Source of the DNA: Blasia pusilla
Lineage: Eukaryota
Assembly: GCA_050084515.1 (NCBI GenBank)
Contig: CM114271.1
Coordinates: 25,792,001 to 25,856,000 of the forward strand
Reading direction: 5' to 3'
Length of the DNA stretch: 64,000 bases
In this document: piece by piece, positions 159 to 59,200 of the stretch
Layout: each line of letters begins with the position of its first letter
Position numbering within the stretch: the first letter of the stretch is position 1
Notes under the pieces: generated by a model
Told to the model about the DNA's origin: nothing
Database searches by the model: none
What the model saw: only the letters and a program-made list of their open reading frames with translations
Position numbers and translations under genes: made by a program

Positions 159-2688
159 GCGGGTAGATATGAGTAATCTTGAAGAAGTACGGGCAGCTGT
201 GGGCCCTACAACAAAGCTGGTGTGGTTGGAGAGCCCAACGAATCCTCGCATAATGATCGCAGACATTCGTGTACATTTCTTCCTCTTCTTAATTCAATGT
301 TGTTTCCCCTTATTTGTATTACGTGAACGATGGAATGAATAAACTGATTGTTTGTCCAGTGGTACGCAAGAGATCCACAAGGGAGCATTCAGTGATTTGC
401 GGTGACTATATATTTTTGTTGGGTGGAAACCTTTCTGAGAAAAGCTTCAGGTTTTGATGAATTTGGAAGATTTACAGGAAATAGCAGATATTGCACACAA
501 ACATGGAGCCCTAGTGATGGTCGACAATAGTATTATGTCTCCAATACTTTCCAGACCACTTGAGTTGGGGGCAGGTAAGAAAGAGTCTGGGTGCACAGAA
601 TTGGAATCACGTTTAGCTTATCTTGAGTTTAGGTATGCAGGAACTTGCTTTGTGGACGTGTTGAATCTAAAGGTTCTAAGTCAAGAAGGAATGTTTACTC
701 TGAGTGTGGTTTAAGTTTGAATAGATTATTTTTTCTGGAGCTTTTCACCAGAGTTTGGATGCCTGGCGGTTTACATTTTCTCAGCATGAATCTAGCAAAG
801 AAGGCTTCCAACCTTACAGATATGATCTTTTGCTTCAACAAAACTGTTTGTTTCTTGCAAGGTTCACAGATATTGTGATGCATTCAGCTACAAAATTTAT
901 TTCGGGCCACAGTGATATCATGGCTGGTGTTCTTGCTGTGAAGGATCCAAGGTATGGATGTCAATCAGCTACTTATCGTCAAAATGGAATCAGATCCCTA
1001 TGAGGAAACGTGGAGGTTTGTCATGATGTAAACCAAGCCAGCACTGGCTTGCCTTCATCACTTTCGTAATGCTGCACCACTGTCCTGATACAATCACTCC
1101 TGGGCCATTTCTATGAGAACCTTTCATTAAGACAACAGAAGAGTGAATTAAAGTTTTGCACTCACTGACGCCAGGGGCCAAGGGATAGACAGAAATGTCA
1201 AGGTCTAAGCAGGCACTAGCAGAGCCCAGACAGTGTGCAAAGGTCGTCAGGAAAGAAGCCTTCCGTGAGTCTTCTGAATCATATAAATGTGCTACTTCAA
1301 GTATTTGCCTTATCTTTACATTTAGAGTCCTCGAGCACAACTACCCTGTTACTTCTGTTGTCATATAATGATGGAATTCGTATGCAGATGTGGGTCTAGT
1401 TGAGTGTAGAATAGGGCGAAACAAAGGACTTAAGTGAATCCTATTTTCACCCTATTCATAATAAGCATGCTTAACCTGTGCAGTCTGGCAAAGGAGCTTT
1501 ATTTTCTGCAAAATGCGGAGGGCACAGGCTTAGCACCATTCGACTGTTGGCTATGCCTCCGTGGTATCAAGACTATGGCACTTCGTGTTGAAAAGCAACA
1601 GGTTCTGGGATTCTCAGTTGGTCTTTATTTTGCAAGTTCCCGTCTGTGAGGAAACCTTCTGTTTTTGTGATTTGTTCCTTCACGAACGAAATAGAGATTT
1701 GAAACTCTCCATTCTTCCTTGTGGTGTAACAGGCCAATGCACAAAAGATAGCAGAGTTTCTTGATACACATCCGCAAATCAAGAAGGTCAACTATGCTGG
1801 ACTCCTGGGACATGTTGGTCGAGATTTGCACTTCTCACAGGTATATTTATCCTACCAGTGAGTTCTGCAAACACTTTTCAAAGTACCAGGGATTGGGTCT
1901 AAGGGTAAACTCTTAATGGGACACATGTGTGAACAGTGCAAGGGTGCGGGATCTGTTCTGAGCTTCACGACTGGTTCTTTGGCGGCATCTAAGCATATTG
2001 CCGAGGAGACAAAACTCTTCAGCATTACAGTCAGCTTTGGTAATTTTGTCGTCTGTCTTTTTTCTGATATACCTCTAGCATATGTAGCATTATCATCTGA
2101 ATGTTCTTACGTTTCTCCAGGCTTCCTGTAGTTGAAGATTCTCTGGTCTTTATTTTTCCCTTGAAGAAACTATTATTTCTTTCATCCCGGTTTCTTCATT
2201 GGTCTGGTTTAATGCTTGAATGATTAATGTGTGACAGGTAGTGTGGCATCGCTGATTAGCTTACCTTGCTTCATGTCTCACGCAAGCATCCCTTTGCATG
2301 TTCGTGAAGCTCGTGGGTTACATGAAGATTTGGTTCGCCTCTCTGTAAGTTCAATTGAATGTTGGAATCACTATACACGTCAATTGCCATTGGAGCTCAT
2401 GCATCACAGTTTGCCCAGGCAATTAAAGCCCCAAACTCCCATGGTTGTATGTACAGCTGTGGAAAGTAGTGTTCTTCAAGGCTCATTATGGCTTAGGATA
2501 AGCAACTCAATGGTTCAATTATGAGAGATGGTATGTTACTAGTTATGAGCACAATTGACATCAAGGAAATATCTCCAAGACTCTCATAACATAACTTGTA
2601 ATATACGTGGTATGTGCAGATTGGAATTGAGGATGTGGATGACCTTATCAGTGATTTGGAACAAGCCATTAGAACTGCATCTGTGTAG
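159..2688 (+). CDS. CBL: Cystathionine beta-lyase (PLP-dependent), 3' portion; gene starts upstream of the window. Exons 159-270, 478-574, 870-951, 1484-1601, 1733-1840, 1937-2039, 2238-2344, 2620-2688
   Basis: GT-AG exons join in frame to give [35 protein letters not shown] (PLP lysine), [46 protein letters not shown] and [16 protein letters not shown]; stop TAG at 2686-2688. Confidence 0.95.
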
Positions 2689-3899
2689 CATCTTCCTTTT
2701 TTAATTCAGACTAGGATTCTTTTCATCATTGCAAGGTCATGTATAGACAATGTACATCAGTATCTGCAATGTAGGGGGATAGGGATTGTGAAGCAGTCAA
2801 CTGTGGAGCAGATCTGCAGGTAAAGGCTGGTCACTTGTGCAATTCTGCGGAGCATCGTATGCACTCGATTTTAGTTGCCTTGACCACCAATGTACTGGTT
2901 CTTGATGGAGCTTTGGAAAATAAAGCTGACCTTCATCACTCATGCCCTGGGACAAGCTTGCATTCATGGCAAGAGTTGCAGTTTGTTCACACAATATTTG
3001 AAGACTTGTGAAGCAGCTTAACAGAATGGAACCAAACAGGTGGTGATCTTCAAGAAATACTGTCACTGTCAAGGTAAACTAAGAAAACTGGAGGTAAGGA
3101 AACCCTGAGACTACCAGAAACTTTGATATCATCCAACAAGTCTAGTAAAGACACGGCAAGGGAAGCAAAGAGGAGCAACAACTGGCTGTGCCCACATTCA
3201 ATTACTATGGAAAATTTGACATGGTGATAAAGTTCAGGCCTACATCCTCTAATTTGAGATGCCCAATTACGATGCTGGGGTAGACATGCATCCTGTGAGA
3301 GTCTAGATGTTGAGATAAGGGACAACTCTGCTCATCACCAAGACAAGTCATTTTATGATTGACATCAACCTCACTAGTGCTCAAGCATAACCTCATGGTA
3401 CTTTGGCTTGGCACAACTTTTGTTCCCTCTCTTCTCATGTTGGGGACATATCTTTCCTTTTTGGCTTTTCGGGATTCATAATGTCCCCTTTGATGTTGGA
3501 TTTCAGATGAGCATCCCTCACTTCTAGGATTGGCCAAATGTGGCCATCTTGAGTTGCATTGGTCCACACGAAGGGCGTTGGTGCAGATCGTACGTATGTG
3601 CACCCTCTAGCCCTTGTATGTTGAGAGGACATTCAATTACTCGGCCAAGAACCCAAAAATCCACATCTTGAGAAAATGCCATATCCACATTGGGACTAGA
3701 TTTCCTTTGATAAGAAATATACTTTTTTCAGCTAAACATACATGGGGTCATATTTTTTATTCAGATTTCAACAATTTTTTTAGAATGTAAATTGAAAAAC
3801 TTTGAAATCTAACAAAGAAAAGTTGTTATGCGTTATTATTTTAGTGCCCAAAAGAGCTTCTTGCCACTAGAATGCATCATTCCATGATATAGTTTTCCA

Positions 3900-4600
3900 T
3901 GTTTGAGGTTATAACGACTAGATCCAACATGTGTTTAAAGTGAGTAAGGTGGTGTTAGAAAGTTTGTGAGAACATGATTCCAACGTATTAAAAATTTGGT
4001 AAATGCATGAGCAAAAGTTTGGAAACCATCCTTGAGTTTGGAAATGATGGTCGGGTTGAGGGCCATAAAGGGAGAGGAAGGAATCTGTAGAACTATATAT
4101 AAGGGGGAAGATCTTCAACGTTGTTTGGAACTTGAATCCCACCTTGAGAACCATGGGGGTGAATCAAGAAAATATGATAGGGTACGGATTCAAAGGTTGA
4201 TCTTGGGGTTTGGACACCAAGCCAAGTCCAGATGGACTAATTATGGATATAAACCGTGGATATTGAATCGTGATTCATATATTGAGTCTCGGTTATAGAT
4301 CCAATCGAGATCCATCAAGCAGTTGTAACTCCCATGCATTGACGAGGTTTTAAATCCCTAGACTATTGAGGAAGTTTGTTCCAAATCTTGGATGACTTGT
4401 CTGTGTTGGAGAGTAAAGGATTAGGTTAACATCTAACTTATGTCTAGATTGGTTGAGCTTGAAGAGTTTCCCGAGAGCGAGACATGAGAGACGCAAAGCT
4501 GGTTACCCAAATCGTAGTTGATGTGGATGTGTTTGGATGTAGATTAGTAAAGAGAGCATGACTTGTTGTACGAAAGCTTCTACAACACATAAGACAGATA
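3900..4600 (+). repeat. Degenerate dispersed repeat (LTR-like); inverted relative copy at about 36000-36720
   Basis: Blocks such as TGAGTAAGGTGGTGTTAGAAAG, CTATATATAAGGGGGAAGAT and GAGAGCATGAC align in the same order with the reverse complement of 36000-36720; boundaries approximate. Confidence 0.55.
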
Positions 4601-5748
4601 TGTCTTATATGATGATCGTTGGGTGAGGTTTCAACTTTTAATCTTTTGCAATGTAAAATAGCAAAAGATTTAAAGTTGAGACCTCACATAGGGAGCATTG
4701 TTTTGCTAAAAAAAAACCTTGGTTCTAGTGAGGCAAAACACATGGTTAAAGAGCTTCAATAGTACAACTTTTAGAACCCAAAAGGCATGCAAAACTACAA
4801 ACTTGCTTGGGGAGATTCAACCTTATTCACACTATTTAGTAATATATTTATTTAAGTTTGAACCCCCAATTTTTTTGTATAGAGTCCTTTTGCATAATAA
4901 CAACCCATCGTAAGATAAAAATTTCTCGAAAGAAACTTGACTTAGTTTTGGTGTCACTCACTCATCCCAATATTAAAGTAATAGCTGTAAACATAGCCAA
5001 AAAAAAATGCTTGAACGATTTTTTTTATAATCAAAGTATTTTAGTAATTTTAAATTAAATTACATCCGTAAAAATTTGTATATAAAATTTGGAAAAACAA
5101 GTTCTTGATACTTCTTACTTCTATCTCTTGCAATAAATATTTAGAAAAGTTTCAAGATCTGAATGGACTCGAAACTCATAGCATCCATGAAAAAATTTCT
5201 ATCAAGACTAGAAAGAATGGATCCTCTTTTTAATTTTCTATTTCAAGAAAAATAAAATTCAAGATTAATTTCTCCACAAACTATTGTTACTTATATTGTG
5301 TAACTCAAGTACAATTGAAACTTTGCAAGAGTTGTTGAAACACTCTTAAGTATAGGCTCAAAGAGTTTCATAAATTTAAGATATTTCTCTTCGAGATATG
5401 TTTTTATGTAGGCTTTGCTAACATATCTTTCTTGCCTTCAAATAGAGATGTGCATGGATATAGTAATAAGAATCACTTGTAATTCAATATCCATGCAAGA
5501 AGGGATGAAGAAAAAAAGAGCAAGGTTGCATATAGATAGAGTTTGTGTCCGCAGTCATGTCCAAGTTCGTGGACTTAAATCCGTCCTATGGAAGGACTTG
5601 TCTATGTGGGCCCCATCTTCCCCTTCTTTCTCATTCCCCCCGCTTGCCTTTGTGTTCTATTCTCTCCCGTTTCTTCCTCCCTCCATCTCCACTCCCTCCC
5701 CCCTTATTGCCAAGATTGCATGGAAACGAAAAAAAGTCTAAACATGTC

Positions 5749-11811: not shown

Positions 11812-12950
11812 TTAAAGGAAGGTTTGGAAGACGGGTGCATGGATAAAGCTTTCTGTGAGCACTAGAGATAGAAATCCTATCATGGCGAGTCGTCCGTTCC
11901 AGCGCTCGGCTTTGGCCGTGAAAGGCCCGAAGCTTCGAGCATCCGTAGACTCCCCATTCAGCATCGGGACAATTGACGCGTACGCGATCAAGGGAACGAG
12001 CGCGATGTACCACACCAGCCCCGTTCCCTGTGTGTACAGTTGATCGAATACCGTCAGCCCGCTCACCTTCTCTGCTACCGCCGCCCATACTACGCCGAGC
12101 ATCGCCTGCAACAAAGCGTATTGAATATCGGTGAAATTATGTTAAGAAACGTCTATGCCGAGCATCGCCTGCAACAAAGCGTATTGAATATCGGTGAAAT
12201 TATGTTAAGAAACGTCTATGCCGAGCATCGCCTGCAACAAAGCGTGTTGAACATCGGTGAAATTATGTTAAGAAACGTCTATCGCCTGCAACATAGCATG
12301 TTGGACATCTGTAAAATTATGTTAAGAAACGTCTATGCCGAGCATCGCCTGCAACATAGCATGTTGAACATTGGTAAAATTATGTTAAGAAACGTCTATG
12401 CCGAGCATCGCCTGCGACAAAGCGTATTGAACATCGGTAATTATGTTAAGAGACGTCTATAGTATCCAGCTTAAGCTCGACCAAATAGACTCGGGAAATT
12501 GAGTTTTTCCTGGCAGGAGAATGAGCTAGGGGCCTACAGAATCCTGTCCGGGCAGAGCGGGGAAAAACTCACCAATCGGCCGTTGATGGTCTCCGGTGCT
12601 GCACCGTCAAAAGCAAAAATGCTACCGATACTCTTGTCACCAGTCTCAGGGCGCCTCTCCACTTCGGGACGCGGGTAGAAGGAGCCGGATTTTGGCACAG
12701 CACCAAAGACTGATTTCTTCTCTGACTCATTCGTCTCCTGGTTTTCCAATATCTCCTCCCGGGTGATATCGTTCTTCGTGGCGTTGTCCACGGTCTCTCG
12801 AACACTTTCGCACCGGATGAAGTTCCTTCCGGCTACCATTGGCGTCGAACTCACACCGCCGAAAGCCACAGAGCTGGCCGGGTTCCTGAAGCGCTGGGTT
12901 GAGAATGACAAGCTCGACAAACCTCCCAAAACGACCGAAGAGGAAGCCAT
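11812..12950 (-). CDS. ELIP: Early light-induced protein (ELIP)/LHC-like chlorophyll a/b-binding family protein with transit peptide. Exons 12950-12573 and 12105-11812
   Basis: Two LHC helix motifs FAFDGAAPETINGRL|AMLG and AERWNGRLAMIG; Ser-rich N-terminus; GT donor at 12572-12571, CAG acceptor at 12108-12106. Confidence 0.9.
12094..12460. repeat. Six tandem copies of an ~63-bp unit (one lacking 9 bp) spanning the ELIP intron/exon-2 boundary
   Basis: Unit GCCGAGCATCGCCTGCAACAAAGCGTATTGAATATCGGTGAAATTATGTTAAGAAACGTCTAT starting at about 12094, 12157, 12220, 12283 (short), 12337 and 12400. Confidence 0.95.
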
Positions 12951-13598: not shown

Positions 13599-16329
13599 CC
13601 ACTTTATTAGAAAATAAACCTCAAAAGAGGAAAAAAAGTCAGTCAGGGTCCACAATGCTCAAAATATCAGAATGGTATGAACTTGGTTGAATGATCAACC
13701 ATGACAACGCTCGAACTGCCCATGATTCACGTAAGAATATCTTCAGTTCCCACCGCTCACATGATGCGCAAAAACATCTCAAAAGAGGAGCCAAAAAATG
13801 CATGATGGAATGCGAAAAGAAAATGGCAACTAGCCAACGCAAACACCAACTCAACGAGCTGAATTGAAAGTCTGAAACAAATCTGACAAGAACACGAGTG
13901 TTTGGTCAGACGTGAATGGACGACGAGGCGAGCTACCCCACAACCACCTCTGCACGACATATCAATGCCAAGGCTTGTGGACGTTGTAAGGCCACTGAGA
14001 TGCATTGCCGAAAATAAGACACATGTAAATGACCGAATACTTCCACTGAAAAAGGAATAAATCCATCATTCGTATGTCTCACAACATCACTTAACTCATT
14101 GATTCTTGTTGCAGCTTCGGCCGCCTAACCTTTGGTATGTGCGGCTCAACACACCAAGTCAGAACTTGTTGGATCACCAACCACCAAATCACCTAGTGTC
14201 CGGAATACACCTCGAGACATAGCAAGATCCACTCTCTGACGAGAGGTTGCTTGTGTGGTTGAAGGTAGCACATGGAGTTGCTCTTGCCCAACGGTGTATC
14301 ATGCAGTACGAGCCACTGATGCAACCGCCTCTCTAATGCAATCATGTGTGGCTGTTCGTTCTCCACCATGTGCACATCAGAGAATATGGATACCCTTGGC
14401 ATCAATGGGATCCCCGCATACACAATTAGGCACACCTAATAGAGAAGGATGGGGAAGTCCAAGGCGTAACCGCAAAGCTGTCGAGAATATACTTCAAGAA
14501 AGACGAAATGGAAGAATAAGAGGATTCGCAATAAGGCACGCCCCCGCTCCGATACCTGCACATGAATGCAGACAAGCTCAATGAGCGTCAGAGGATGCCT
14601 CAGAGAGAATGCTAGAAAATTTGATTTGATGTAGATTCTCTGAGATATGCTCTTGAAGTCGATCAAGCCCTTCCATAATCAATTGACTGAAAGGGGGTAG
14701 AATTGCTTGTGTAGCAAGAGGAAGAAGAGCTCGTGCAGATCTCAATTGTTGTTGAAATAACAAGTTCCCCTCTTCTACATGGGCAACATGATCCATCAAG
14801 ATAGGTGTATCGCCTTGGCGAAACCTTGAAGCCATAATCGGTGCGACCAACGCCCAACTCCCCAAAAAGGCTGTGGGAGGAAATTAGACTGTGGAGCAAA
14901 GTCCCACCCCTCCAAAAGAAATAGGTAAGATAGTTTTTTGTGAAGCCAAGACACCATCCTCTCCCTCAAATATATTCGAGCCAAGAAGTTGACCAAAAGT
15001 TGCCAAGATAGAAACGTCAAAAGAGGCCGACCAACATAAGAACCTTGAAGTGGGAGGAGAAGTGCGAAGAAAGTAGGAAGGACGTCGTAGAAAATATTTG
15101 GAGAGAATCCCATAAGCCACTTGGGGATCCCCCAGATGAGGTAAAAAATGAAGCCATTACACGTCTTTCAAAAGGACCTCATCCAAGAACTTTGAGACAT
15201 AGTCGACGAAGTCAATTGGGACCCCAAGAACCCTAATCCCTTCAATGTAGATGGGAAAATCAGGAGTAGGTGGGGTGAATGTTGAGGGTAGGCATGAAGG
15301 AGACCATACTCCACATTTACTAGGCGGGACTTTAAGGTTTAAGAAAGAGAGTTGCTCCACGAAATGGATATAAGCAGGAACCACTTCAGAAGGAGGACCT
15401 GTTGAGTGTCATCAACAATAGAAGGGAAAAGAGAAGATGGAAATGCTTGTGCTCATGCTCGATGGAAACGAGAATGGGCAATGGCAAAGAGTGGGCCACC
15501 CATGGGATCACCTTGATGTGTACCACAAGCCGATTGTAAAATACTATATTCCCCGGAAGTAGCATGATGAGAATAGATAATGGGCGTATCATAGGCAAAG
15601 AAGGAGCAAACAAATGGAATAAGACTCGTAAGTTGTCCTCCTGCACAACGTAACTCCTCAAAGATGGCCGCACGAGAAACTGAATTGAATGCATTAGCCA
15701 CATCGACCTGAATTACTACCCATTCTGGATGAATATCAAAAGTGGAGCAAATCCCATGCACCACATCTTCACAACCTCCAGGAGTTGCCACTCCAAATTC
15801 ATGAGGAAATAAGTTGGCACTAAAGTGAGGACAAAATTGCAAGCATAGGGATTGACTAACCAAGCGGTATAAGACATCTCCAATAGCCAAACGGCGAACA
15901 CCTTAGGGAGGCTTATCCATAGCCAACAAACGACAAGCCCCTAAGAGCATGGAGACAAAGAATGGGAGACGACATGCCGCAATATGTGCACACACCTTAT
16001 ATATAGAGAGAGAGAGACAAAGCCACTTGCTGAATCTAGCGGGATAAAGCAATGGCGGAGATGCTCAAAAAACCATCCTTGATAGACCGCTTGCTGATAA
16101 GCAAGGAGTATGAAGAAAAGCCCTTGTGAAAACCTCCAAGTCAAGCTCCAAGTCAAGGTCCGTTGTAAAGTCTTCCACAAAAGGTGGAGCATCGCCACTT
16201 GAGGGAGGGTGAAGAGCTTCTAAGAGAGCCGCTTTTTCCGCACTTGGAACCTCCGGAGAGAGAGGACCCAACGCTCGAGCTGCACGTGAAAACTCACCAA
16301 TGAGCCCCAAAAGTAGACTTCGTCAAAGG
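13599..16329 (-). mobile_element. Degenerate CRE-clade non-LTR retrotransposon (RT, CCHC knuckle, restriction-like endonuclease), 3' part; ends at an (AT)9 tract
   Basis: Minus-strand motifs GEFSRAARAL, AIGDVLYRLV, HEFGVATPGGCEDVVH, DVANAFNSVSR, QGDPMGGPLFA, LRLRLG..CVCG...H...CAHGGERTATHD, RVDL...GDLVVGDP, FIPFSVEVFG and ISVALQR; AATAAA followed by (AT)n at 13598-13581; many stops and frameshifts. Confidence 0.85.
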
Positions 16330-16817
16330 TGTCATATCTTTTAGGATAGATCGATGAGATCTAGTAGAGCGCCTTTGTGAGTAGTGGAGGACAGGCTCAG
16401 TAGGTCGAGGATGACCTGTTGAAGCTCATTTGGAGCCATATTGAGCAACTTACTATTTTAGGTAACTACCATTTTGAGTATATGGTCGACTTTCTTTTTT
16501 TGGTAAGTGGCCTTTGACCTCCTACATCGGGTCAAGAGCTTAGGAGGTGACTTGGGAGAATATGTTACCATGGAGAGAGCTTGGTAGAAGGGAGCTTGGT
16601 AGAAGGGAGGGGTATACCTCAAGGAGAGAGAGCTTGAGAGCTCATTCTCTCTTTCTTGAACCTCTTGACATGAGGCGGAGGAGCTATGGTCCCTTGCCTT
16701 GTGAGTGTAACCCAAGCCTCTCATCAGGAAAGTGGGTCTGGTTTGACATGAGAGAGAGTACACATCTTTGAGAGCTATGGTGTGAGATGGTGTAGAGAGA
16801 GATTGGATCTTACTTTA
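16330..16817 (+). repeat. Terminal repeat block A1 (copy A2 at 25968-26476)
   Basis: TGTCATATCTTTTAGGATAGATCG...GATTGGATCTTACTTTA is highly similar to 25968-26476, apart from an ~40-bp indel, a 15-bp duplication and scattered substitutions. Confidence 0.95.
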
Positions 16818-25967: not shown

Positions 25968-26603
25968 TGTCACGTCTTTTAGGATAGATCGGTGAGATCT
26001 AGTAGAGCGCCTTTGTGAGTAGTACAGGCTCAGTAGGTCGAGGATTAAATGCTGAGGCTCTGGGAAACCTGAGAGAGCAGGTTTCTCCATCGTTTCGGCT
26101 CATTTGGAGCCATATTGAGCACCTTACTATTTTAGGTAACTACCATTTTGAGTATATGATCGACTTTATATTTTTGGTAAGTGGCCCTTGACCTCCTACA
26201 TTAGGTCAAGAGCCAAGGAGGTGACTTGGGAGAATAGGTTACCATGGAGAGAGCTTGGGAGAAGGGAGGGGTATACCTCAAGGAGAGAGAGCTTGAGAGC
26301 TCATTCTCTCTTTGTTGAACCTCTTGGCATGAGGGGGCGGAGCTATGGTCCCTTGCCTTGTGAATGTAACCCAAGCCTCTCATTAGAAGAGTGGGTTTGG
26401 TTTGACATGAGAGAGAGTGCACATCTTTGAGAGCTATGGTGTGAGATGGTGTAGAGAGAGATTGGATCTTACTTTATTGGAGATATTTTATAACTTCTTG
26501 TCTCGTTGTTTGGATGCTATGAGTTAGCATGGGATCGTGCGTGTTTGTGTGTGTGTTCGGTGATAGCCATGTATGTTGTGTAGCGATGTGTATGCGCACG
26601 ACA
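25968..26603 (+). repeat. Repeat blocks A2 (25968-26476) and B2 (26476-26603), forming the right end of the element
   Basis: Starts TGTCACGTC, ends CACGACA; A2 abuts B2 directly at CTTACTTTA/TTGGAGATA. Confidence 0.95.
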
Positions 26604-27338: not shown

Positions 27339-29711
27339 AACACATCAACTTTGGTAGGATCCTACAAAAGTTCATGTTTATTGAACTAAGGGCAAGCTCA
27401 ATGAATCTCCCCATGATTGGTTGTAGAAGTTTCATAATTAGGTAGCGTATTTTTGTAGATATTCTTCATTACGTTGCTTAAGCCAATGAAAATCATCACA
27501 TATTTTCTCCAAGCTTTTGTGATCTTAAATTAGCCTGTAAACACATCCTACAATTCTTTCTAAGTTGTCGAATTTTTGGGTTAGAACCTTACCTGGGAGT
27601 ACAACTTCCCTCCCATCAAGTGCTTAAATAGTGACTTGCGTGACGCGACTAGTGGCTCATTTATACTATTAAGAGAGGATGGGGTTAGAGAAACCCTCCT
27701 CCGACGTCAACACATGTCCTTTCAAACCTCTTCTGCTATTGAGACGTGTCAGATTTAAGGAGTAGTTAAATTAAGAGGATCAATTTTCCCCTCACATGGG
27801 CAACATACTAGTTTCTTATATGTGAGACTTGTTGCATTCTTGAAAGTTGTAAGTAAGTGGTGTAATATAATTGGTATGTTCAAAATAAAAAGCATCTCAC
27901 TAAAAATAATTTTCACTCCTCCATTTCTAGTCTTGAGAAGGCTCAAGTAATTCTTTGTGGTCATTCCTCTAAAATTCATGCAAGTTCTCTTTGTCTCCTC
28001 CAAATCTTACATTCCCCATAATATAAAAAAGCATTTTCAAAATTAAAAGTATTATTATTATTTCTTCGTATTATACAAGTCATGAATATAATGATTATTA
28101 TAAATACAAATCCATAAAATAATTTTCAGAATCCGGCGGTGGTGTGAATGAGTCCGAGTGCGGAAACCGAAGAAAAGCTCAGCACTCGACGCTGATTTTG
28201 CAGCCCACCGTTGTTAGTGGACTTGCCGGTAGCCCGGCACCGCACAGGTGGAGTGCGACGCTCCTTGGGAAACAGCGATGGTACCTCGGGACGCGACTCA
28301 GTGATAGTTACGGTGCCGCTGACGAATTCATAACAGTTGAAGCGCCTGCGCTCCGTCCCGTGCGAATGGTGTGGTGGTGAGTATGTTGGAGACTATTTCA
28401 GAGTAAACCCTAGAATCACACTTCGGAGCTAGGATTTGCACTTTCTTAATTTCTCACGGTGTGCGTACACATACGGTACAAGATTGGCACTGCCATGCCG
28501 ATTCGGTCTGCTACTGTCCTCCGCACGTGACATATCTGATCGTATCTTGTATCTTTCGACTGGATCCGAGCTTGCATTCCGAAGAGGCCTCGCTCTCAAA
28601 TTTTGTGCGTGGATGTTCACGACTTTTTGGCTGCATCTGCACATGTGACGACCTAGAGAGTCCGAACAGAGCAAGATTTGGATGTGATGGAATCGACCCT
28701 GAGTGGGGCTCAAAAACGAAGATGCACTTCGATAAAAACGAGTGATGGAAAACCCATCGGAAGTACAAAAGAGGGGGACTCAATGAGTCAAAACCTGAAA
28801 GCCACAACAGGACCAGAAAAGGAAGAAGAGGGCATCCCCCTACCGACGAAACTCACACCAGAAACAATATCAGCAACAACAAGAGAACTATGACTACTAC
28901 CTTTGGTGCGGTGAGCGTGGACTCTAAACCTCGTCCCCGGCCCGTTAGTTAGTTGTCAGACTCGCATAGGGGAAACGCGCTACGTGTGGTGTATGTATTT
29001 GACTGGGATGCGTTTCAGAGGCAGTTGGCAGCTCACGGGGATATACTGGTTGATTGCTATACACACCTACATGACAGCTATTTGTGGAGATTGGCTTTAG
29101 ATTTCAGAGGACATCAACTGACTAGATTGACGTCCGACTGTGGCCAGACGCTTGAAACAGCTTTTCCAATACTAATAATTGGTAGGTTTAGGCGAACTTC
29201 TGGCGATGGCGTTGTAGTCCTAGTAGACAGTGGGAGTAAGTCGAACATTCACACCTCTGACGAAGAGATATGATTCGTTACAGATACGACTCATCGCCAG
29301 TCAAATGAGGTCTCTGAAAGTCAGCGGAGAAGTTTCAAGCAAGTCCTTCTCTGTAAATTTGCATTGTTCATCGCTGTCTCGTCTACCTGCTCCCGATTAT
29401 TCCGAAATCACAAGACAAATCCAAAAGCTGACGAAAGTTGTGGATAGTAAGATAAATGAAGAAACTTATTCCATCACTTGTATGGTAATCTCGCTTCTTA
29501 CGGATTTTTGATATGGAATTTAGAAATTTCCAATTTGGGTGGGTCTACAGGTTCCTTTGGTCGTCACTTCTTTTCAACAGTGGACAGACACAGGCACTAT
29601 CTACACGACGTTGTATCAAACGGGCACATTCTCCCATGTACGAATCAGAAATGTCTCATCTCAGAGAATTGAAAGCCAGAGTCGACTCGCTACCTAATCG
29701 GCTCTTAGCGT

Positions 29712-34381: not shown

Positions 34382-34741
34382 CATCCACCGTTGCTATTCT
34401 AGCTTTGAAAGACCGTTTAATTATAGGGCACCATTCAAACATTTGCTTTTATAAGGTAAGACTAACACGACGACTCTCTAAGCTAATCCCTCCCCACCTA
34501 CCTAAGCCCTTTTTTATACATATTTTATATTTCTCACGGTTCCTTCACGGGCTTGAGTTCAACCATCAACTAATTGTTGCTTTTATAAGGGACCTCCGAC
34601 ACGGCGGCCGCCTCACCCAATTCACGTCGGAAGTTCCAAACCCCAACTACCTAAACCCTTCCCCTCATAGAGCACTTGAGTTCCGAACCGACGGCCGTCA
34701 ACGTCATCCGGTGAGTTGCATTCGAGCATTGCGTCCCGAAG

Positions 34742-34980
34742 CAACTCTTCCCGAAGCAAGGTTCCGCGTCTTTCCGTCGGAATGGCAGTACCCACTCTTC
34801 CCGAAGCCAGGTTCCGCGTCTGTCCGTCGGAACGGCAGTGCCAACTCTTCCCGAAGCCAGGTTCGGCGTCTGTCCGTCGGAACGGCAGTGCCAACTCTTC
34901 CCGAAGCAAGGTTCCGCGTCTGTCCGTCGGAACGGCAGTGCCAACTCTGCCCGAAGCAAAGTCCCGCGTCCGTCCGTCCG
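34742..34980. repeat. GC-rich minisatellite, ~4.7 copies of a 50-bp unit
   Basis: CAACTCTTCCCGAAGCCAGGTTCCGCGTCTGTCCGTCGGAACGGCAGTGC starting at 34742, 34792, 34842, 34892 and 34942. Confidence 0.92.
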
Positions 34981-35999
34981 TGCGTTGGCCCTAACGTGCC
35001 CCCCGCCGCATCTGGTATTCGTATGCCCACGAACCAATCATCGTTTGAGGGTTTCCAAGAAGATACGGTACAGGGTTTCTCCCGCTTCCGGTCCGCCGGG
35101 CCCACATCCGCATTTATGGCTCCAGCCGGCTGCCTCTCCTGCGTCGGATTGTCCTTGGGAGAGAAAGCTTGGTAGGGTACGTTCTCTAACGAGCGACGCT
35201 ACTCCACTAAAGACACACGCACACTCGCGGCAGTGCAATCGGCTAAAAGGATCCTTTAGGGTCATAAGTGAGGAAGATGTCATGAATGATCCGGCTTTTA
35301 TACGGGTATTCCCTCGGGGGTATTCTAGTGAGAATTAATTTGGTCGTAATAATTTGGGGTATTCTAGTGAGAATGAATTTGGTCGATAAGCTTTTAATTT
35401 TTAAGAAATTGTGGAAATGAAGAGAATTCGGTGTGCGTTTAGTACGGGTCTATTATTGATATGTCAATTCATTATTACGAGTGTATATGTAGGTTTAAAT
35501 TATTAACTTTCAATTTTATTTTAAAATTATGATATATTTTCTAATTAATTATAGAATTATTTATTGATTGAGAAATCAAACAATCCTACTGGTTAAAATA
35601 GGATGGATATCCATAGGAGTTTGAAAAATGAATGGACATTCTCCAACAATGAGATAGATTTAACCCCTCCACATTGGCAATATCATATTTGAACGTGTTT
35701 GGGATTTAAGGGTTATTGTTCCTTTTTTTCCATGTCTTAGGATTTGAAAAATCTTTACTTTGTTTAGGTAGGGTTTTCAAAAATGATTGTCCAATCTCTT
35801 ATTTGATCCAAGGCTGGAAATTCTTGTTCAAAGCAATGTCCGCATAGAATCGGGATTCATTGTTGAGCTAGCCCAATGAAAATGTGAAACTCCAATCCTA
35901 GATACCAAGCTCCAGCAAAAATTCCAAAGGAAAATATTAGGTTTTGCGGAGAATGAGTTTGAGAAATTTTTCGTTTGCCTACTCTTCTAGAACGTTAAT

Positions 36000-43011: not shown

Positions 43012-46000
43012 TTACTTTGACAACCAGTACAGGAGTATGAGTATTGTACACACAAATGTTACAGTCCCTAAGATAATGTTGTCCAGTGATTTTTTGCGTC
43101 TAATATCCGTCAAAATATTATTTATCTGCAAAACACCAGCAGACTATTAATGAGCAGGCCACTCTAGCACTTGTCAAATAATATACACTTGTACACCGTC
43201 ATAAAGCATCAGATTGGCATAAGACATTCTGTGACTTCGCACTTACTGATGGTAAACTAGCTCCCATGACACCAAGTTTATGGCTGACGTCTCCGAGGGT
43301 GGAACGTTGAATAGTCAATCCACTTAAAGTTGCCTGGACGTGTGCAATAAGTGAATCCATCTGCACATCACACCACATTTCAGTCACAAACAGAGGAATC
43401 CCTTCCCATAATGAGAGTTTTGTAGACATATGCTCCTAGTGGCTTTGGGAAGTTTCCCAGCACCTGTCCATTACTCCTGCTGATAGCTGCTTGCTCTCGT
43501 AGTAGTGCTTGTTCCGAAGAGCCCAGACCATTCTCAATGTCATTTTTCTTATTTGTGGGTCCGCTGAAGGTCTCAAGTAGCTTTGCATGTTCCCGATTGA
43601 CTTTAGCCCTGCCATTGATTCGAGCATACTCCTGCATTGCCATATAAAGGCATGATTAATCTTTCCACACATACTATGAGTATCGTCATTGTTCGGTTAT
43701 TAGTGAGCAAAGCCTATCTATGCCAAAAGTTACAGTAAGAGTCTACCATAGCTTTTCCAATTCAATTGCTTCAACCACTTTCCTCAGTAAATGAACAACA
43801 GAACTACTAACTAGATTCAAACCATGCATTCAAACATCCTAGCTGTGTAGATGTTGAATACTACCCCTTGAGTTGATGAATCAGCTGGAAATGTCCTATT
43901 GCCAACTGCCAACAGTTTCTTTGAATTTCAATCGCATACTTGGAAGATATTGTACGGTCCTTTCTTTATCCACCATTCAACATAGAGTAAAAACTTTTAC
44001 ACACAGTGGTAAAGCCAAAACTTCTTTGGAGGGGAAGTCGTTGTCTCTTACTTGAGTCAACTCTTGAAGAATGTCTTTATGCCGAGCCAGGGTGTGAGAG
44101 AGAACATGTGAGGCACCACTTGATACCCATTCTTGCATTTGAGTGTTCACTTGTCGCAAGTCTTGTAGAAGCTGCTTTATTTGTGCATCAGTCACACCCT
44201 CTGGATCTTCAGGTCCACTTGCGATTTTGCGGTAAGCAATCAACTTGTCATCCAACTCACTCTCTATTTTACGAGCCTGCACAGAAGTCATAGTTTACTT
44301 TCAGACTAACAAACTACAACTCCGACAGTCTCTCCTCAAATCTAAAGCAGTCAAAGATGTGAAAAAGAAGCAAAAGAGCATCTCCATGGTCTCAGCTTTC
44401 CAAAAGTTGGCTGGCTTGCAGGATGCAGGACAATGCCTAAGTCCTTGAGAATGAAAATCAGCAGATCAGATGAGGTAAGTTATTATAATCAATCAGAATC
44501 TCTTGTTATAATCTCAGGAAGCGTCATCTCTTGTTATAGATCAAATAGAATTGGAGTTGACATTTGCAGCCAGGTGACTATGAAAATCGGCTAGGTTTTG
44601 CTCGAGACACCACCATTGTCAAGGAACATTCCTTTTGGAACTTCAGATGGTGCAAACAAGTTGCTACTACGATTTCACATCTCCTAGATCTTGTCTGGAA
44701 AATAAAATGCTAAGATGAAAGAATTGCTATGTAGAAATGTTTCACACTTCAACTCTGTATAGAAATGCTCTTTACTAAAAAAGAGATATTCGCTGGAACT
44801 ACGGTCAGTCATTCGGTAATAGATGTCCTGCCATAGGGCAGTTCACAGAAGGTCTGGTTTGTCCAAGTTTTGACATAAATTAATGCGACCTATGCTACAC
44901 TGCAAGGGAGTCATTCTAACCAGACTTGAAGACCACTTCATATCCAAGACCAGGACGACAATGGCAGACAATATGAAGGCAGAAAATCGATACACGGTGA
45001 CGGATGAACTACCTACGCTGGATGGTAAATCTATTAGCTTACGAGGTCCAAAGGATTTTCTTTTCTCTCCATCGCCCGTACTAACTTCGTTGACGTAATG
45101 CTACGTTACGTGTACATCCTTGTTTGAGGTCCAATTCCCCATCTCTTCATCGGGAGAAGTACGGCATTTTAAAAAATAGGCAAGAAAAACCGCGAAGACT
45201 GAAAGCACGTTTAAGGGGCACTAGGACCACGCGCTACAGAATGGAAAACATTAATTTTGTTTTTTTTTAAGAAACATTTTTCCAAGGGATTTACAAGAGC
45301 AAAGATTGCTTAAATTGATAAGCCCTTCCATGGATCATGTATGTGACGATTGTGAGACTAAAGATGGAAGTTCGTCTCTGTCCAACACAACACGAGGTAA
45401 AGTTTTCTACAGATCTACAATTCGGAGATACAAGAGACTACCAACGGGAACAAACAGAATTGGTTGCACGACCTACACATCAAAATGTTCGCCATCATAA
45501 CAGAGATCTGCGCGGGTCTCCACAACGATGGTCCCAAATTCAATGTAATAGACGTCGGTGGCGAGATCAAGACTCCAAATAAAAGAACCGATTTGGAGTC
45601 TTGATCTCGCCACCGACGTTTAAGGGGCACTAGGACCATGCGCTACAGAATGGAAAACATTAATTTTGTTTTTTTTTAAGAAACATTTTTCCAAGGGATT
45701 TACAAGAGAAAAGATTGCTTAAATTGATAAGCCCTTCCATGGATCATGTATGTGACGATTGTGAGACTAAAGATGGAAGTTCGTCTCTGTCCAACACAAC
45801 ACGAGGTAAAGTGTTCTACAGATCTACAATTCGGAGATACAAGAGACTACCAACGGGAACAAACAGAATTGGTTGCACGACCTACACATCAAAATGTTCG
45901 CCATCATAACAGAGATCTGCGCGGGTCTCCACAACGATGGTCCCAAATTCAATGTAATAGACGTCGGTGGCGAGATCAAGACTCCAAATAAAAGAACCGA

Positions 46001-49996: not shown

Positions 49997-51697
49997 CACG
50001 AGAGTGAACAGATGGAAGAAAATTGCTTCTGTTCGGAGAAAGTAGTTGGCTTGGGCTTGGACAAAGTCTCGGAAGAGCCACATGTACAAATGCAAACATG
50101 AATTTGAGTATCTATTGAAGGTTGAGTCTCCAGGTAAGTGAGGCAAATTCTTCATGCCGTACTTTCTCAACTTTTGTATCCATCCTGCAATTCCATGGAG
50201 GCTGAAAGGTCGTGGAGCTGTGAGAAGTATTTCTTCTCGTGCTTCAGTTGTAATTGTAGGCAAGTGACCCCGTCCACATAGAAAGTAAGTCGTGATCAAA
50301 GTTGATTCAGGTTATGCTTGGGCAGATACGGAAAGGCTCATCAGCATCTACTGCAAGTGCTCTGGTGCAGTTCAAGTTACGATTGGGTAGAAACAGCAGA
50401 ACTTCACTTGAAATTGTGCTGCACATATGGCTTTTTTATGAAGATTTCCAATGACGACACTTAATTAGAGGCTAGTAGTGGCTTGGGATTCTTGCCTTAT
50501 GTCGATTCTTCAGTATGAGGTTTGGGAGAGCTAAATTTGTCTTGTTTGTGAATTGCTGCAGCTTCAGTTGAATTCTTTATATCTGAAGAGTCCACGCAAT
50601 CCACGCAATAACTGTGGTATTTCTATCGGAAGTGTACCAAAATCTGCTTTTAGGTACAGGAGCTCATAAAATTCATACTAGCCCACAGGTGGTTAGACTT
50701 CAGGTTATGCTCAAGGAGAAACCCAGTTTCAATTAGGTTGAGTTAGAGGGAGGTGTCTATAGTTTAGGATATTGTGAGTCTGAAGGGTCCCATGTATGTA
50801 TCTTCTTATTCACTAGTGCATTGTTTAGAGACCATCTGCAAAACAAAGCCTTGGTTTTCCAGGACTATGTTCTCCTTTCTCCCTACAATCTGTCAAATTG
50901 GCTGGTGTTACTACAGCAGAGGTCTTCAAATGCCGAGTTGCTGTTCAAAGTCCCATCTTCCTCACCCTGATTCTACTCAGACATAGTTTCTTCGTACTTC
51001 TACTGCAAACAAGCACAAGGTGGACCTGTAGTCATGGGTTTTGCTGTTGGATTGCTGATGGAGGGCTATGTGGTTGTAGTTACTGTCTTATGAGATATAT
51101 AGAAACTAAAAGAAATTCGGCAGTGAAGGCTTGAAGCAGAAAGCAGTCTTACTTGCTTTATTGGTGTTTTTTCTTCTCTGGCCAGATACAATGGGTTTAG
51201 AAAATTGCTTTGCTTCCAATTTTGTCCCTATATTTTTGCGTCTACCTATCTTGGCATTAATTTAGAACGGCCATCCTTGGCAGTTGTGAGGTTGTGGCTC
51301 ATGAGATACGTTCCCCTCTTGATATTTATCTAGATTGGAGAATGATTCAAATGGATATGGCTAATGAATTCAATATAGTTTCTTATGTGGCCATATTCAA
51401 GGAGTTCCGTTTTTTTTATAGGACGACAAATTACGAGTCTTCATTTCTCCTTTGCTACTATGTCCATTATCTATTATGAGCATGCTATTTCCAAAACACA
51501 AAATATTCTCCAATGGGCATGTGGCACACATTAAGACGATTACATGAATATCCCACATTTTGCCATTGCACATTTATGTGCCTTTCGCGTATTAGGAAAA
51601 ACGCTTCCATCCTATGCTTTGTCTTCTACTGTTGATTACATCCACATTATAGCTCCTCCTTCTAAAGTGGTCTCTACTTATATTTACTTTTTGGAGC

Positions 51698-51735
<38 letters not shown>

Positions 51736-51738
<3 letters not shown>

Positions 51739-51959
51739 GGATCCCAATCAGGTAAAGTAGATTGTGTGGTGAAGAGTTTCTTGGTTGACCCTTGGAAGCT
51801 CCGCACAAACACGTTGTTTGGTCAGCACTCACACTATATGAGAGTGTCTCCCTCCTCTCATATGGTACCTTCTTCACTTGCTTCTCTCTCTACACCCATC
51901 CCAGTGCGCGGGGTCTATGGTCGCAAGGCTACGACAGGCACAACTTAATGAGTACAGTT
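51736..51959 (+). mobile_element. 5'-truncated 3'-UTR-only copy of the RTE-X-like LINE, inserted in (CT)n
   Basis: Matches 54384-54625 apart from a small internal deletion; flanked by (CT)n on both sides. Confidence 0.88.
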
Positions 51960-51977
51960 TCTCTCTCTCTCTCTCTT

Positions 51978-52096
51978 TGATGCGATCATACCAGGGTTAC
52001 TACACCAGATCCCATTAGAACTCTGCAGTTAAGCGCCCTTGGGCCGGAATAGTACTGGGATGGGTGACCTCTCGGGAAGTCCCGGTGCTGCATCCA
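51978..52096 (+). rRNA. Full-length 5S rRNA-derived sequence (head of a SINE3-like element; probably not a canonical rDNA unit)
   Basis: GATGCGATCATACCAG...AGTTAAGCGCCCTTGGG (box A)...AGTACTGGGATGGGTGACC (IE/box C)...CCGGTGCTGCATCCA, 119 nt; no oligo-T terminator directly downstream. Confidence 0.9.
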
Positions 52097-52181
52097 AGCA
52101 AGCCTTTGTCTCAAGCACCGTCCAACCAGGGCGCGGGGTCTATGGTCGCAAGGCTACGATAGGCACTACTTAATGAGTACA

Positions 52182-52209
<28 letters not shown>
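51978..52209 (+). mobile_element. 5S rRNA-derived SINE (SINE3-like): 5S head + ~74-nt LINE-derived tail + (CT)n
   Basis: Tail 52108-52181 GTCTCAAGCACC...GGTCGCAAGGCTACGATAGGCACTACTTAATGAGTACA matches the LINE 3' end at 54552-54625. Confidence 0.8.
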
Positions 52210-52212
<3 letters not shown>

Positions 52213-52291
52213 GATGGAAGTGCAATAATTGAGCAAGGCTAGGGACAAAAATGACGTAAAGGCCTTGCTCTCTCTCTCTCTCTCTCTCTCT

Positions 52292-54624
52292 TTGGATGGA
52301 AGTGCAGTAATTGAGCAAGGCTAGGGACAAAAATGACGTAGAGGAAAGATAGTGGAATGGTGACCACGGCTAAACAGATCCGACATGTGTTTGAAGACCA
52401 TTACAAGGAGTTAGACAGGAAGCCCGCTTGGACATCCCTTGAAGAGTAGAACTCCGAGAGGGTGGTGGAGGATTTTGTTAAGATACGACGAGAGAAGGTA
52501 GTAGATGAGGTTGAGTTGGGCAACCCATATAACGATTGATTCTCCCTGGTTGAGGTGGGAGCAGCGATCAAAGAACTTGTGAACCACAAAGCAGGTGGTG
52601 GCCATGAGCTTGTGAATGAGCTGTTGAAGTATGGCGATGCTGCTATGGCTCGTTATCTAGTGAGTCTCTTCAACCTGGTCTGGCAGGCAGAAGTCATCCC
52701 AAAAAGATGGCGTGTGGGAGTCATCGGGAACCTCTTCAAGAAGGGTGAGCGAGAAGGCTGTGGAAACTACAGGGGTATTACATTGCTGAGTGTAGTCGGG
52801 AAGCTCCTTTGGCGTATACTCAACAATAGGATGTCTGTGTACCTAGAGGAGAATTTTGCCGTCAAGGAAGGCAAGGCTGGCTTCCGGCAAGCCCGAGGAT
52901 GCGTGGATCACATCTTCACTTTTAGTCAGATTATCCAAGGTAGGAAAAAAGAGGGGAAACCCACCTATTGCTTCTTCTTGGACCTCAAGAAGGCATAAGA
53001 CACTGTATGGCGTGACGGGCTATCTTATAGCTTGTGGAAGGCGAGGCTGAGAGGGAAAATGTGGAGGGTGGTGGAGAAGATGTACCAGAACACAAGGAGT
53101 AGAGTTCTTGTGAATGGCCAAAAGAGTGGGATATTCGACATCAAGGAAGGAGTGGCTCAAGGATGCCCGCTCTCCCCCATTCTCTTCAACATTTTCGTGA
53201 ATTCCCTATTGGAAGAAATGGAGGATAGTGGACTAGGCATACGGGTGGGTATGTTTGTTGATGACTTTGGTGGCCTTGAGGAAACAGGAGAGAAACTCCA
53301 AGAGATGATCTCCCTGACCAAAATCTGGTGTGACATGTGGGGCATGGAGGCAAAGTGCGGTGTGATGATTTTCAATGGCAAGGAGGGGACCAAGACCAAC
53401 AGTGGTACTGGGGTGAACAAGAGATCCCCCGTATGGCTACATACACCTATCTCGGCATAGAATTCTCGGAAGATTGCATGTGGGATGCGCACATTAAGAA
53501 GACTACTGAGAAAGGCCACAAGAAGGTGAACGGTTTGTCCAGATTCCTACACTGCCGGGATATCACATGAGAAGTAAAGCGCTCTGTCATTTTGCATATC
53601 ATTCGTCCCTCGTTGGAATACGGGGCAGCAGTGTGGGATGCCAACACCAAACAAAGGGATAGGCTTGAAGCTGTGCAGTTGAAGGCGTTTCGGGATATGA
53701 TGTCAACCTCATCACACACAGCTCGAGTGGGTGTGAGATCAGAACTAGGTGTGGAACCCTTGGAGGATAGACGTGACATTGCCAAGTTGAAATGGCGGAT
53801 GCAGCTGGAGACAATGGACTCCCATCGCTATCCTAAAGAGGTGATAGGGAAAACCTGGACCCAAAGAAGACCCGTAAAGTAGGCCAAATCTTGGACGAAA
53901 GGTTCAAGAGATTGTGCAAGCTTCCAAGCTCCCAGCAGGGCCTGAACTGTAGGAGCAAGATGAGAAAGCATTCGTGGATACCATAACCAAAGCAGTGGGC
54001 AAACGCTCACAACAGAACAACATGGAGGAAGCCATGAAAATGTCTGACCTCTCTCTCTTGACGGTATATCTCGAGAAGGCAGAACTGAAGAACTATTTGC
54101 GGGAACCCCTTGCTTGGGAACCCGGCTCAAGTTCAAGTTCAGAACGGGAGAAATCCCCTTGAGCCATAAGAAAAGCAGGATGGGAACACAACTAAACTCT
54201 TGTGCCTTGTGTGACGATGGGGATGAAACCTCTAGTCATTACTTGGTCTCTCGCCAAAATTCACAACTCACAGAGCAAGAGCATATCCGATATTGCTAAG
54301 CCGGGTAGCACCAGAATTGTTCAACACATTGAGAGGGCTTGATTCATTGCCCAAAGCGATGCACTTTGGTAAGTAATGTCTATTGGGGATCCCAATCAGG
54401 TAAAGTAGATGGTGTGGTGAAGAGTTTCTTGGTTGACACTTGAAGCTCCGCACAAACACGTTGTTTGGTCAAGACTCACACTATATGAGAGTGTCCCCTC
54501 CTCTCATATATGGTACCTTCTTCACTTGCTTCTCTCTCTACACCCATCCCAGTCTCAAGCACCATCCAACCAGGGCGCGGGGTTTATGGTCGCAAGGCTA
54601 CGACAGGCACTACTTAATGAGTAT

Positions 54625-54696
<72 letters not shown>
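52292..54696 (+). mobile_element. 5'-truncated RTE-X-like LINE (RT, C-terminal Zn knuckle, 3' UTR, (CT)n tail)
   Basis: NLFKKG...NYRGITLLSVVGKL, AGFR, DHIF, FLDLKKA*DTVWR, GVAQGCPLSPILFNIF, MFVDD, YTYLGI, IRPSLEYGAAVW and CALCDDGDETSSH; clade call from motif style only. Confidence 0.85.
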
Positions 54697-54701
<5 letters not shown>

Positions 54702-54799
54702 GTCCAAAGTAGTGAATGTGAAGCATGATTTCCTTCATGCCTTTACTCGATATTGAATATTCATCCCCATATACCCTTGATCTTATCATTTGCATTGAA

Positions 54800-57700: not shown

Positions 57701-59200
57701 AGTGCAAATTTATGTCCTCAAATTTTGAGGATTAATATATCAAGTAAAACACAATGCTCAATTGATTTCAGCGAAGCAACTTGAAAAGGATCTCAATGGT
57801 GGGTTCCAATATTGCGGAATCACATTGAAATTTGAGGCATCTGAAGTGGATGATGCATCACTAAAAGAGGAACTAAAAGTAAACCTTACGTCTAGAGTGT
57901 GGAAAATCTTGGAAGTGTTTGGGTATGTCTTAAGAAGGGAACTTTTGAAAGGAATACTGCCTAAGCAAAACATGGATCATAAGATTGAACTCAATTCTAG
58001 AATGGACCTCATCTTGAGGAACCCTTAGATGATGGATCCCCAAGAAAGGAAACTCTTGTATGAGCATATTAAGACATTGGAGGAAAGCGAGTTTATTCGC
58101 CCGAGTATATCAGCGTTAGGAGCCCCTTCCTTTTTGATCTCAAATAAGGATGGGTCTATGCGCTTTTACGTGGATTACAAAGCATTGAACAAAAAGACTA
58201 TCAAGAATAAGTATTTGGTGCCTTTGGTAGATAAGTTGCTTGATATGGTGGTGGGATCCAAGTATTTTACCAAATCCAAATTGGGGAAGGGAATGAACAT
58301 AACACCGCGATAAGGACAAGATCCGGATCCTGTGAGTTTCTAGCACTGCCCTTTGGACTAACCAACGTGCCAACTAAATTCATGACTCTCATAAATACTA
58401 CCTTTCAGGATTTCTTAGACATGGGACTACTTGTGTTCTTAAATGACAACCTCATATATTCGGTGATCTAGGAGGAACACAAGGTTCTCTACAAAGAAGT
58501 CTTTGGGCATTTGAGGAAGAACAAACTATTTGCAAAACCTTCTAAGTGTTGCTTCATGGTCCAAGAAATGGACTTCTTGGGACATGTGTTGAGAACGTAA
58601 GGCACACCACTCAATCATGACAAGCTTGAGGCTATCAAGTTGTGGCTAGCACCAAGGAATTTGAACAAAACACTTTCATTTTTTGGATTTTTAATCTTCT
58701 ATAGAAGATACATATAGGCATTTTCCAAGGTTGCTAGAGCGCACTATGACTTGACACGGAATGGTTTGATGAGTGTTAGGTGGCGTTTGAGCAACTAAAG
58801 TTTCTATCAAGCGACCCTTATGTACTCAATTTTCCGAAAATCAAGATCCCACTCAAATTTTGAACCGATATGTCTAACTTTACAATTGGCGGAGTGTTGA
58901 ACCAAATGGGTTGACCAATTTCTTATGAGTCGGCCAAATTAGATAACAACTGGTCCACTCATGAGAGGGAGATGTATGCGGTGATTCATTGCCTCAAGAA
59001 GTAGGAAGTATATTTGTTACAAAGTACGGACTTTAAGGTTTATACCAAAAGCATCACTTGCAAATATTTTGCAAGTCAAGAGAAGCTATCACTAAAACAA
59101 CTCCATTAGCAAGAATACCCAACAAGATTTGATATGGAAATCATGTATAAATCAAGTAAGTAGAATGAGGTATAAGCCAAGTAGGCAGAAGCAATACTCG
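54800..59200 (+). mobile_element. Highly degenerate Ty3/Gypsy element with tRNA-Met PBS; truncated after RNase H
   Basis: PBS TGGTATCAGAGC at 55796-55807; ALIDIG..NFL protease; KDGSMRFYVDYKALNKKTIKNKY, LPFGLTN and HEREMYAVIH; left boundary approximate. Confidence 0.8.

Follow-up and report, generated by a model that had tools for sequence, protein, structure and literature searches.

A probable chimeric 5S-LINE retrocopy, present in single copy in the genome of Blasia pusilla

In this study, we describe a 5S rRNA sequence that stands at the head of a LINE 3' end within a stretch of 64,000 nt of the genome of the plant Blasia pusilla (hereafter the window, to which positions given without a contig name refer). 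The unit lies in a tandem pile of LINE pieces with CT runs between them (51701-54697), and the entire cluster is inserted within an old, degenerate reverse transcriptase (RT)-like fossil, LINE-B-like by eye, whose left part occupies 51459-51700 on the forward strand and which resumes at about 54698-54754. An inverted homologue of the fossil at 15278-15588 serves as an empty-site comparison and carries a short TC run at the insertion point. Reading along the forward strand, on which all the parts lie, the cluster opens with a (CT)n run at its left edge (51701-51735), followed by a separate insertion, a 5'-truncated 3' piece of the family that we call LINE-A with a 21-nt internal deletion (51735-51959). 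The left copy of a target-site duplication, consisting of (CT)n and TTG (51960-51979), extends over the initial 1-2 nt of the 5S match. The 5S head (51978-52096) is a full-length match to Rfam RF00001 (100.8 bits, cut-off 38, E 7e-21), the sole Rfam match in the 64-kb window, and it carries 4 substitutions relative to the 5S of the main array. An 11-nt linker (52097-52107), made up of the 8-nt 3' trailer and the TTT of a minor class of 5S genes, is joined blunt, with neither microhomology nor added bases, to the last 74 nt of LINE-A (52108-52181, matching 54552-54625). The tail and the right copy of the duplication together take up 52182-52212, the (CT)n covering 52182-52209 and the duplication 52193-52212. 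Beyond them come an 82-nt repeat (52210-52291, family D10) that duplicates the 5' border of the neighbouring truncated LINE with its CT run, a broken 5'-truncated LINE-A copy with remains of the RT and of a C-terminal zinc-finger-like region (52292-54625, corresponding to nt 2407-4788 of a 4.8-kb element), and the (CT)n tail that forms the right edge of the cluster (54626-54697). The 82-nt duplication of the truncated LINE's 5' border can be followed over 52186-52344.

The target duplication is 20 nt long and brackets head and tail together; it is mostly CT repeat, and its unique part is TTG only. That a single duplication is common to head and tail points to a single insertion. No LTR pair was found around the element when repeats were compared within the 64-kb window. 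An earlier note on this DNA had described the complete 119-nt 5S, the 11-nt linker, the last 74 nt of the LINE and the (CT)n, and all of these are present. Its statement that the 5S lacks an oligo-T terminator holds insofar as the first downstream run of four T is at 52473, but the TTT at 52105-52107 is a terminator remnant of the source 5S class. The adjacent LINE, which had been taken as the apparent partner, does share the tail (54552-54625); however, the chimera tail has 4 differences from this neighbour and 1 from the majority of 33 LINE-A tails, so that the adjacent LINE is not the donor. Likewise, the TGGTC-GCAA-GGCTA hairpin can be drawn at 52143-52156, but the tail folds no better than shuffled sequences: the z-scores of three whole tails were -0.68, +0.26 and -0.18, and the hairpin appeared in the minimum-energy fold of one of these three and in neither window copy. 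A role of the GCAA hairpin as a recognition signal is thus not supported by folding predictions.

Elsewhere in the window, direct repeats at 16330-16817 and 25968-26476 (85-95% alike, about 9.65 kb apart) are probably retrotransposon LTRs, and broken frames at 57729-58313 (+) have, by eye, the look of an LTR-retrotransposon RT, although 58029-58310 gave no Pfam match. Positions 12038-12501, 34692-34991 and 45207-45989 are occupied by 63-nt and 50-nt tandem repeats and by a 300-nt duplication whose inverted arms are 32 nt long. A 3' piece of LINE-B, 85% alike, is found on the reverse strand at 28720-28900.

The junction pattern has one match in the 389.9-Mb genome, namely the window itself. Moreover, the whole 203-nt query returned no second copy of head and tail among the 40 scored of 1766 candidates; a full copy should rank first, and the other matches were the query itself, the adjoining LINE stub and 5S-only matches. 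The 5S end with its trailer, allowing at most one mismatch, occurs at 8 places genome-wide, and only the window copy continues into LINE-A. In one DNA run (X1), possibly the source of the assembly, the summed contig depth was 9.7 over the linker versus 128 and 3021 in the flanking bins; such contig depths are not copy numbers, and they show no sign of a collapsed family. In a run from another sample (X2) no contig covered the linker, and contigs cannot show absence.

Two classes of 5S gene bear on the origin of the linker. The main 5S array is on C8, extends at least over 28.087-28.164 Mb in units of about 340 nt, and has a trailer unlike that of the window. The window-type trailer is carried at 8 places in the genome, 5 of which are degenerate, gene-like copies on C4 with common upstream and downstream flanks and a T-rich run after the trailer. 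Thus, the comparison of the linker with the true 5S 3' flank, which the earlier note had proposed as a check, shows that the linker is the 3' flank of a minor-class 5S gene. All five dispersed heads of the minor trailer class stop exactly at the TTT, two of them with diverged trailers. Since these heads span from the transcript start to the U-tract, the window head appears to be a copy of an unprocessed pol III primary transcript, and we infer from the coincidence of head ends with transcript ends that the donor was RNA; for the mature 5S 3' end of this species we relied on the Rfam model. The assembly contains no young source array for the minor-class trailer, the C4 copies being degenerate. 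At one other locus (L114, C22:403659), a 5S identical to that of the array is followed by the minor-class trailer, stands on a 4-kb LINE-B and has a 10-nt duplication; the first ~173 nt after its trailer are missing from five other long LINE-B copies. To judge from its sequence, this locus implies a young minor-class 5S source missing from the assembly.

The LINE that supplied the tail is a well-populated family. Full-length LINE-A copies are about 4.8 kb long, and one has an uninterrupted frame of 1300 codons whose product matches Pfam RVT_1 (111 bits) and Exo_endo_phos (25.0 bits against a cut-off of 24.5). LINE-A, called RTE-X-like in the earlier note, therefore combines an APE-type endonuclease with an RT, a domain pair common to many clades, RTEX included; its RT matched only L1 and R2 in the PDB, and Atlas gave unnamed EN-RT clusters. 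RTE-X LINEs have been reported in Marchantia (10.1101/827881), which is a lead only for the placement of LINE-A. The exact 32-nt tail motif has 513 matches genome-wide. TC repeats follow 25 of the first 30 tails under a strict test, four long copies have TC-rich 5' flanks, and copies are up to 98.8% alike. Judged by such sequence likeness, LINE-A (for example L105) is young and its activity may persist. Stubs that start near the equivalent of 54552-54557 were examined as possible further headed copies, and none of 21 had a 5S head; about 18 lay behind CT runs and 3 were internally altered LINE copies. C5:38155k, considered as a second copy of the linker, proved to be an internally deleted LINE.

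LINE-B is a different element. Its tail has 888 exact matches, its RT matches RVT_1 at 36.9 bits with no PDB match, and its finger and nuclease motifs were recognized by eye, Pfam giving only a sub-threshold zinc-finger match. The CRE clade combines an RT with an N-terminal C2H2 finger and a C-terminal restriction-like endonuclease; the LINE-B motifs look CRE-like, and LINE-B is a candidate member of that clade. One of the first 30 LINE-B tails has a 5S head within 1.5 kb.

A genome-wide census of 5S heads was made with two patterns for the start of 5S, built so as to leave out the array flank; they gave 17 and 4 matches. Three rows were dropped, namely an array unit, a match that is not 5S and a gene of the C4 cluster; C2:61332k, known from the trailer search, was added and the other C4 cluster copies were left out, leaving 19 heads. 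By design the census passes over heads with a mutated first 14 nt, with AA at -7/-6, or with 5' truncation combined with other trailers. A search for an internal 5S anchor with the tail within 60 nt gave no match; it also misses C1:31464k, in which the anchor is changed, and is given no weight. Of the 19 heads, which lie outside gene clusters, thirteen are clear joins in sense, the 5S being fused to a LINE piece at the 5' end of the latter; the LINE position differs in all 13, and no junction is common to any two. Of these joins, 3 involve LINE-A and 10 LINE-B. Apart from the window locus, the LINE-A joins are C1:31464k, in which a 5S half sits on a 67-nt LINE-A tail with a 12-nt duplication that is clearer than that of the window, and C1:44016k (L120:1159-5571), in which a near full-length LINE-A has a whole 5S with a 24-nt internal inverted copy joined to its extreme 5' end; the 3' end of this LINE-A showed no matching duplication. 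In the ten LINE-B joins, the 3' pieces range in length between about 46 nt and about 4 kb. For C22:403k the LINE-B reference was cut from the same locus, and support comes from five other long LINE-B copies that are 93-94% alike from nt 174-265 on.

The remaining 6 heads comprise C2:27653k (an ambiguous match to LINE-A), two with an old or short LINE-B-like match, C5:23061k, and two unjoined heads. C5:23061k (L138) was rejected as a chimera: here a pre-5S copy has entered the 3' region of an old LINE-B-like piece and carries an 8-nt duplication of its own. No adjoining antisense join was found among the 19 heads. The heads begin no more than about 3 nt from the 5' end of 5S and lack the upstream flank of 5S genes. 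At their 3' ends, 9 of the 13 clear joins have the trailer and 0-4 T, 2 have oligo(A) and 2 are 5' halves, so that 11 of the 13 reach the 5S 3' end. Among the junctions that were aligned base by base, five were blunt, and others showed a short filler or from one to a few additional bases. Duplications of at least 7 nt were detected by script at 8 of the 13, of which two 7-nt ones could be chance. No junction being shared, the 13 joins are, on this sequence comparison, independent chimeric retrocopies. LINE ends far outnumber them, with 513 exact LINE-A tails versus 3 clear joins and 888 LINE-B tails versus 10; the capture rate near 1% that these figures give is rough, as numerators and denominators are both lower bounds. 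Unique junctions together with LINE ends far in excess of chimeras are the pattern that section 19 of PMC4494074 describes for independent template switches.

Other RNAs were also looked for on these LINEs. U6 gave 34 matches, of which 30 were read, and 2 were joined to LINE-like 3' pieces; these pieces were compared with LINE-A, LINE-B and each other only, so more may exist. One U6 (L219, C7:20855551) stands on a piece of a third family, which ends in CT and has a zinc-finger-like remnant, and the other (L220, C4:35960298) on an old LINE-B-like end. That U6 has also been captured weakens any claim of strict 5S specificity. Eight further loci (L234-L238 and L240-L242, e.g., G000:C6:27757565 and C7:11766477) share a degenerate U6-derived piece that scores 38-43 bits (cut-off 44) and lies between LINE-A-like fragments in a larger repeat, 82-92% alike, with a TPR-like gene fragment seen by eye upstream of some of them. 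It is probably an old U6-LINE chimera carried by another element. ARAGORN found no tRNA head on LINE-A at 51 loci. Rfam was also run on 20 loci from each sample of 30. For LINE-B (without the known 5S locus and the last nine) it yielded sub-threshold miRNA matches only, and for LINE-A a single tRNA, unjoined and about 480 nt downstream.

Taken together, the unit at 51978-52209 is very probably a single-copy chimeric 5S-LINE retrocopy and not a SINE. The earlier note had held a one-off template-switch chimera in reserve as its second reading, and this accords with the single-copy junction and with the finding that at least 13 5S-LINE joins, the window unit among them, arose independently in the genome. 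In an order of steps that we infer, the event would have started with a nick by the LINE-A protein in (CT)n that bordered an older LINE-A copy on its 5' side, and target-primed reverse transcription would have begun there on a LINE-A RNA. Once 74 nt had been copied, synthesis would have moved to a 5S primary transcript that was still unprocessed, entering it at its 3' end (trailer and UUU); the pre-5S RNA would then have been copied to its 5' end and the hybrid sealed with the (CT)nTTG duplication. The product has not spread and would be a dead retrocopy.

The join itself was probably made by end-to-end template jumping. RtcB ligates ends that bear a 3'- or cyclic phosphate, and nascent pol III RNAs end in a 3'-OH; for this reason we favour jumping over ligation of the two RNAs before reverse transcription, a route that we consider rather unlikely. 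Sequence alone cannot separate the two. End-to-end template jumps by non-LTR RTs have been described in vitro (PMC8594491; PMC2912911), and RNA ligation is named as an alternative for U6/L1 chimeras (bioRxiv 10.1101/2025.02.02.635956).

It is quite improbable that two insertions produced the unit, with a tailless pre-5S retrocopy landing exactly at the 5' edge of a 74-nt LINE-A stub. Stubs of such size are common, the 21 matches that start nearby lacking the normal upstream sequence, and at C5:23061k a 5S does sit inside an older LINE-B-like piece with a duplication of its own. The window head, in contrast, has no duplication of its own, the sole duplication enclosing head and tail, and in the ten LINE-B joins the 600 nt upstream of the head contain no adjoining LINE-B piece.

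The main reading of the earlier note, a SINE3-like family with a 5S head mobilised by LINE-A, is less credible still and is already refuted for this assembly: the count of the junction across the genome, which that note had asked for, yields a single locus with no independent copies, an outcome that the note itself had named as refuting a family, and the linker is the 3' flank of a 5S gene. The locus does have a 5S-derived head and a 3' end of 74 nt common to its partner LINE. A type-1 pol III promoter is predicted in the head, where the positions at which we assume the A-box, intermediate element and C-box to lie are the same as in the array, and no T4 occurs until 52473; its upstream flank has been replaced by CT repeat. 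Moreover, LINE-A looks young and its tail is abundant in RNA. What is absent is a set of many dispersed copies with one junction, there being 1 copy here, 13 junctions among 13 joins, and the remaining 5S-LINE-A joins breaking elsewhere. In two RNA runs, of which 6% and 12% were read, the linker had a depth below 3 and the tail one above 3000, and about 1070-1090 reads per run extend from the tail upstream into ordinary LINE sequence. The 5S reads had the array letter at 3 of the 4 diagnostic sites in all cases and at the fourth in 4 of 6. These libraries are poor for small pol III RNA and hardly sample 5S, which makes the expression result a weak test.

Transfer of a 5S gene piece beside a LINE stub by DNA repair or recombination has an almost negligible probability. 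Gene-like 5S copies with common flanks do occur outside the main array (the C4 cluster), and C7:9777k has an array-like upstream flank, but the head ends are transcript ends, the upstream flank is absent, the junction is blunt, and the same pattern recurs at 13 loci in one orientation.

The chimeric retrocopy can be set beside several known systems. As in mammalian U6/L1 chimeras, a full-length pol III RNA lies in sense orientation 5' of a strongly truncated LINE 3' end, junctions are unique, a single insertion is seen and there is no further spread (bioRxiv 10.1101/2025.02.02.635956); where its features can be compared, the window locus may be classed with chimeras of this type. The present case departs from U6/L1 in its plant host, in a head that consists of pre-5S and trailer, and in having as partners two LINE families with CT or T-rich ends, L1 being poly(A)-tailed. 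Human 5S/L1 joins, which make up 10.5% of 253 chimeras, also place 5S on a LINE 3' piece with target duplications but are often antisense and truncated (bioRxiv 10.1101/2025.02.02.635956), whereas here all 13 clear joins are in sense and 11 of them extend to the 3' end of 5S. SINE3 and Ped-1 share with the unit a 5S head with an internal pol III promoter (predicted here) and a LINE-derived 3' end (PMC4494074; PMC3747384), but they are amplified with a fixed junction, in vertebrates and insects, and the window unit is single-copy; membership of SINE3 fails because of copy number, the criterion in section 19 of PMC4494074. Cassandra TRIMs likewise hold 5S-derived sequence in a plant retroelement, but as promoter sequence inside LTRs (PMC10946416), whereas the head here is a whole, near-identical 5S and LTRs are absent. 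In ending in and inserting at TC repeats and in building tandem piles, LINE-A resembles microsatellite-targeting LINEs; crocodilian Tx1 families target (TTCC)n (PMC4494074), and RTEX elements with repeat tails have been described (PMC3747384). No 5S-derived SINEs are known in plants according to a 2024 review (PMC10946416), and our limited search of titles and the beginnings of abstracts found no report of plant 5S-LINE chimeras.

The single locus is a dead retrocopy, and the interest lies in the repeated capture of pre-5S by two LINE families. That untrimmed heads are in excess suggests that the encounter took place in the nucleus. We put forward, with some hesitation, that two unrelated LINE machineries preferentially grab nascent, untrimmed 5S in about 1 in 100-200 insertions, that reverse transcription takes place beside pol III transcription or pre-5S processing, and that the genome holds unamplified proto-SINE3s; if this is true, no other of them would resemble a SINE as closely as the window locus, and this in a kingdom from which 5S SINEs are said to be absent. 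Chimeric heads of this kind would inflate counts of dispersed 5S genes. Dispersed heads are also fossils of the 3' ends of 5S precursors, including a trailer class that has no young array in the assembly. Precursors with a 5S head and a LINE tail arise repeatedly in this genome and are raw material from which such families could start; as they recur and none found has spread, the barrier seems to lie after fusion, in transcription, termination or silencing.
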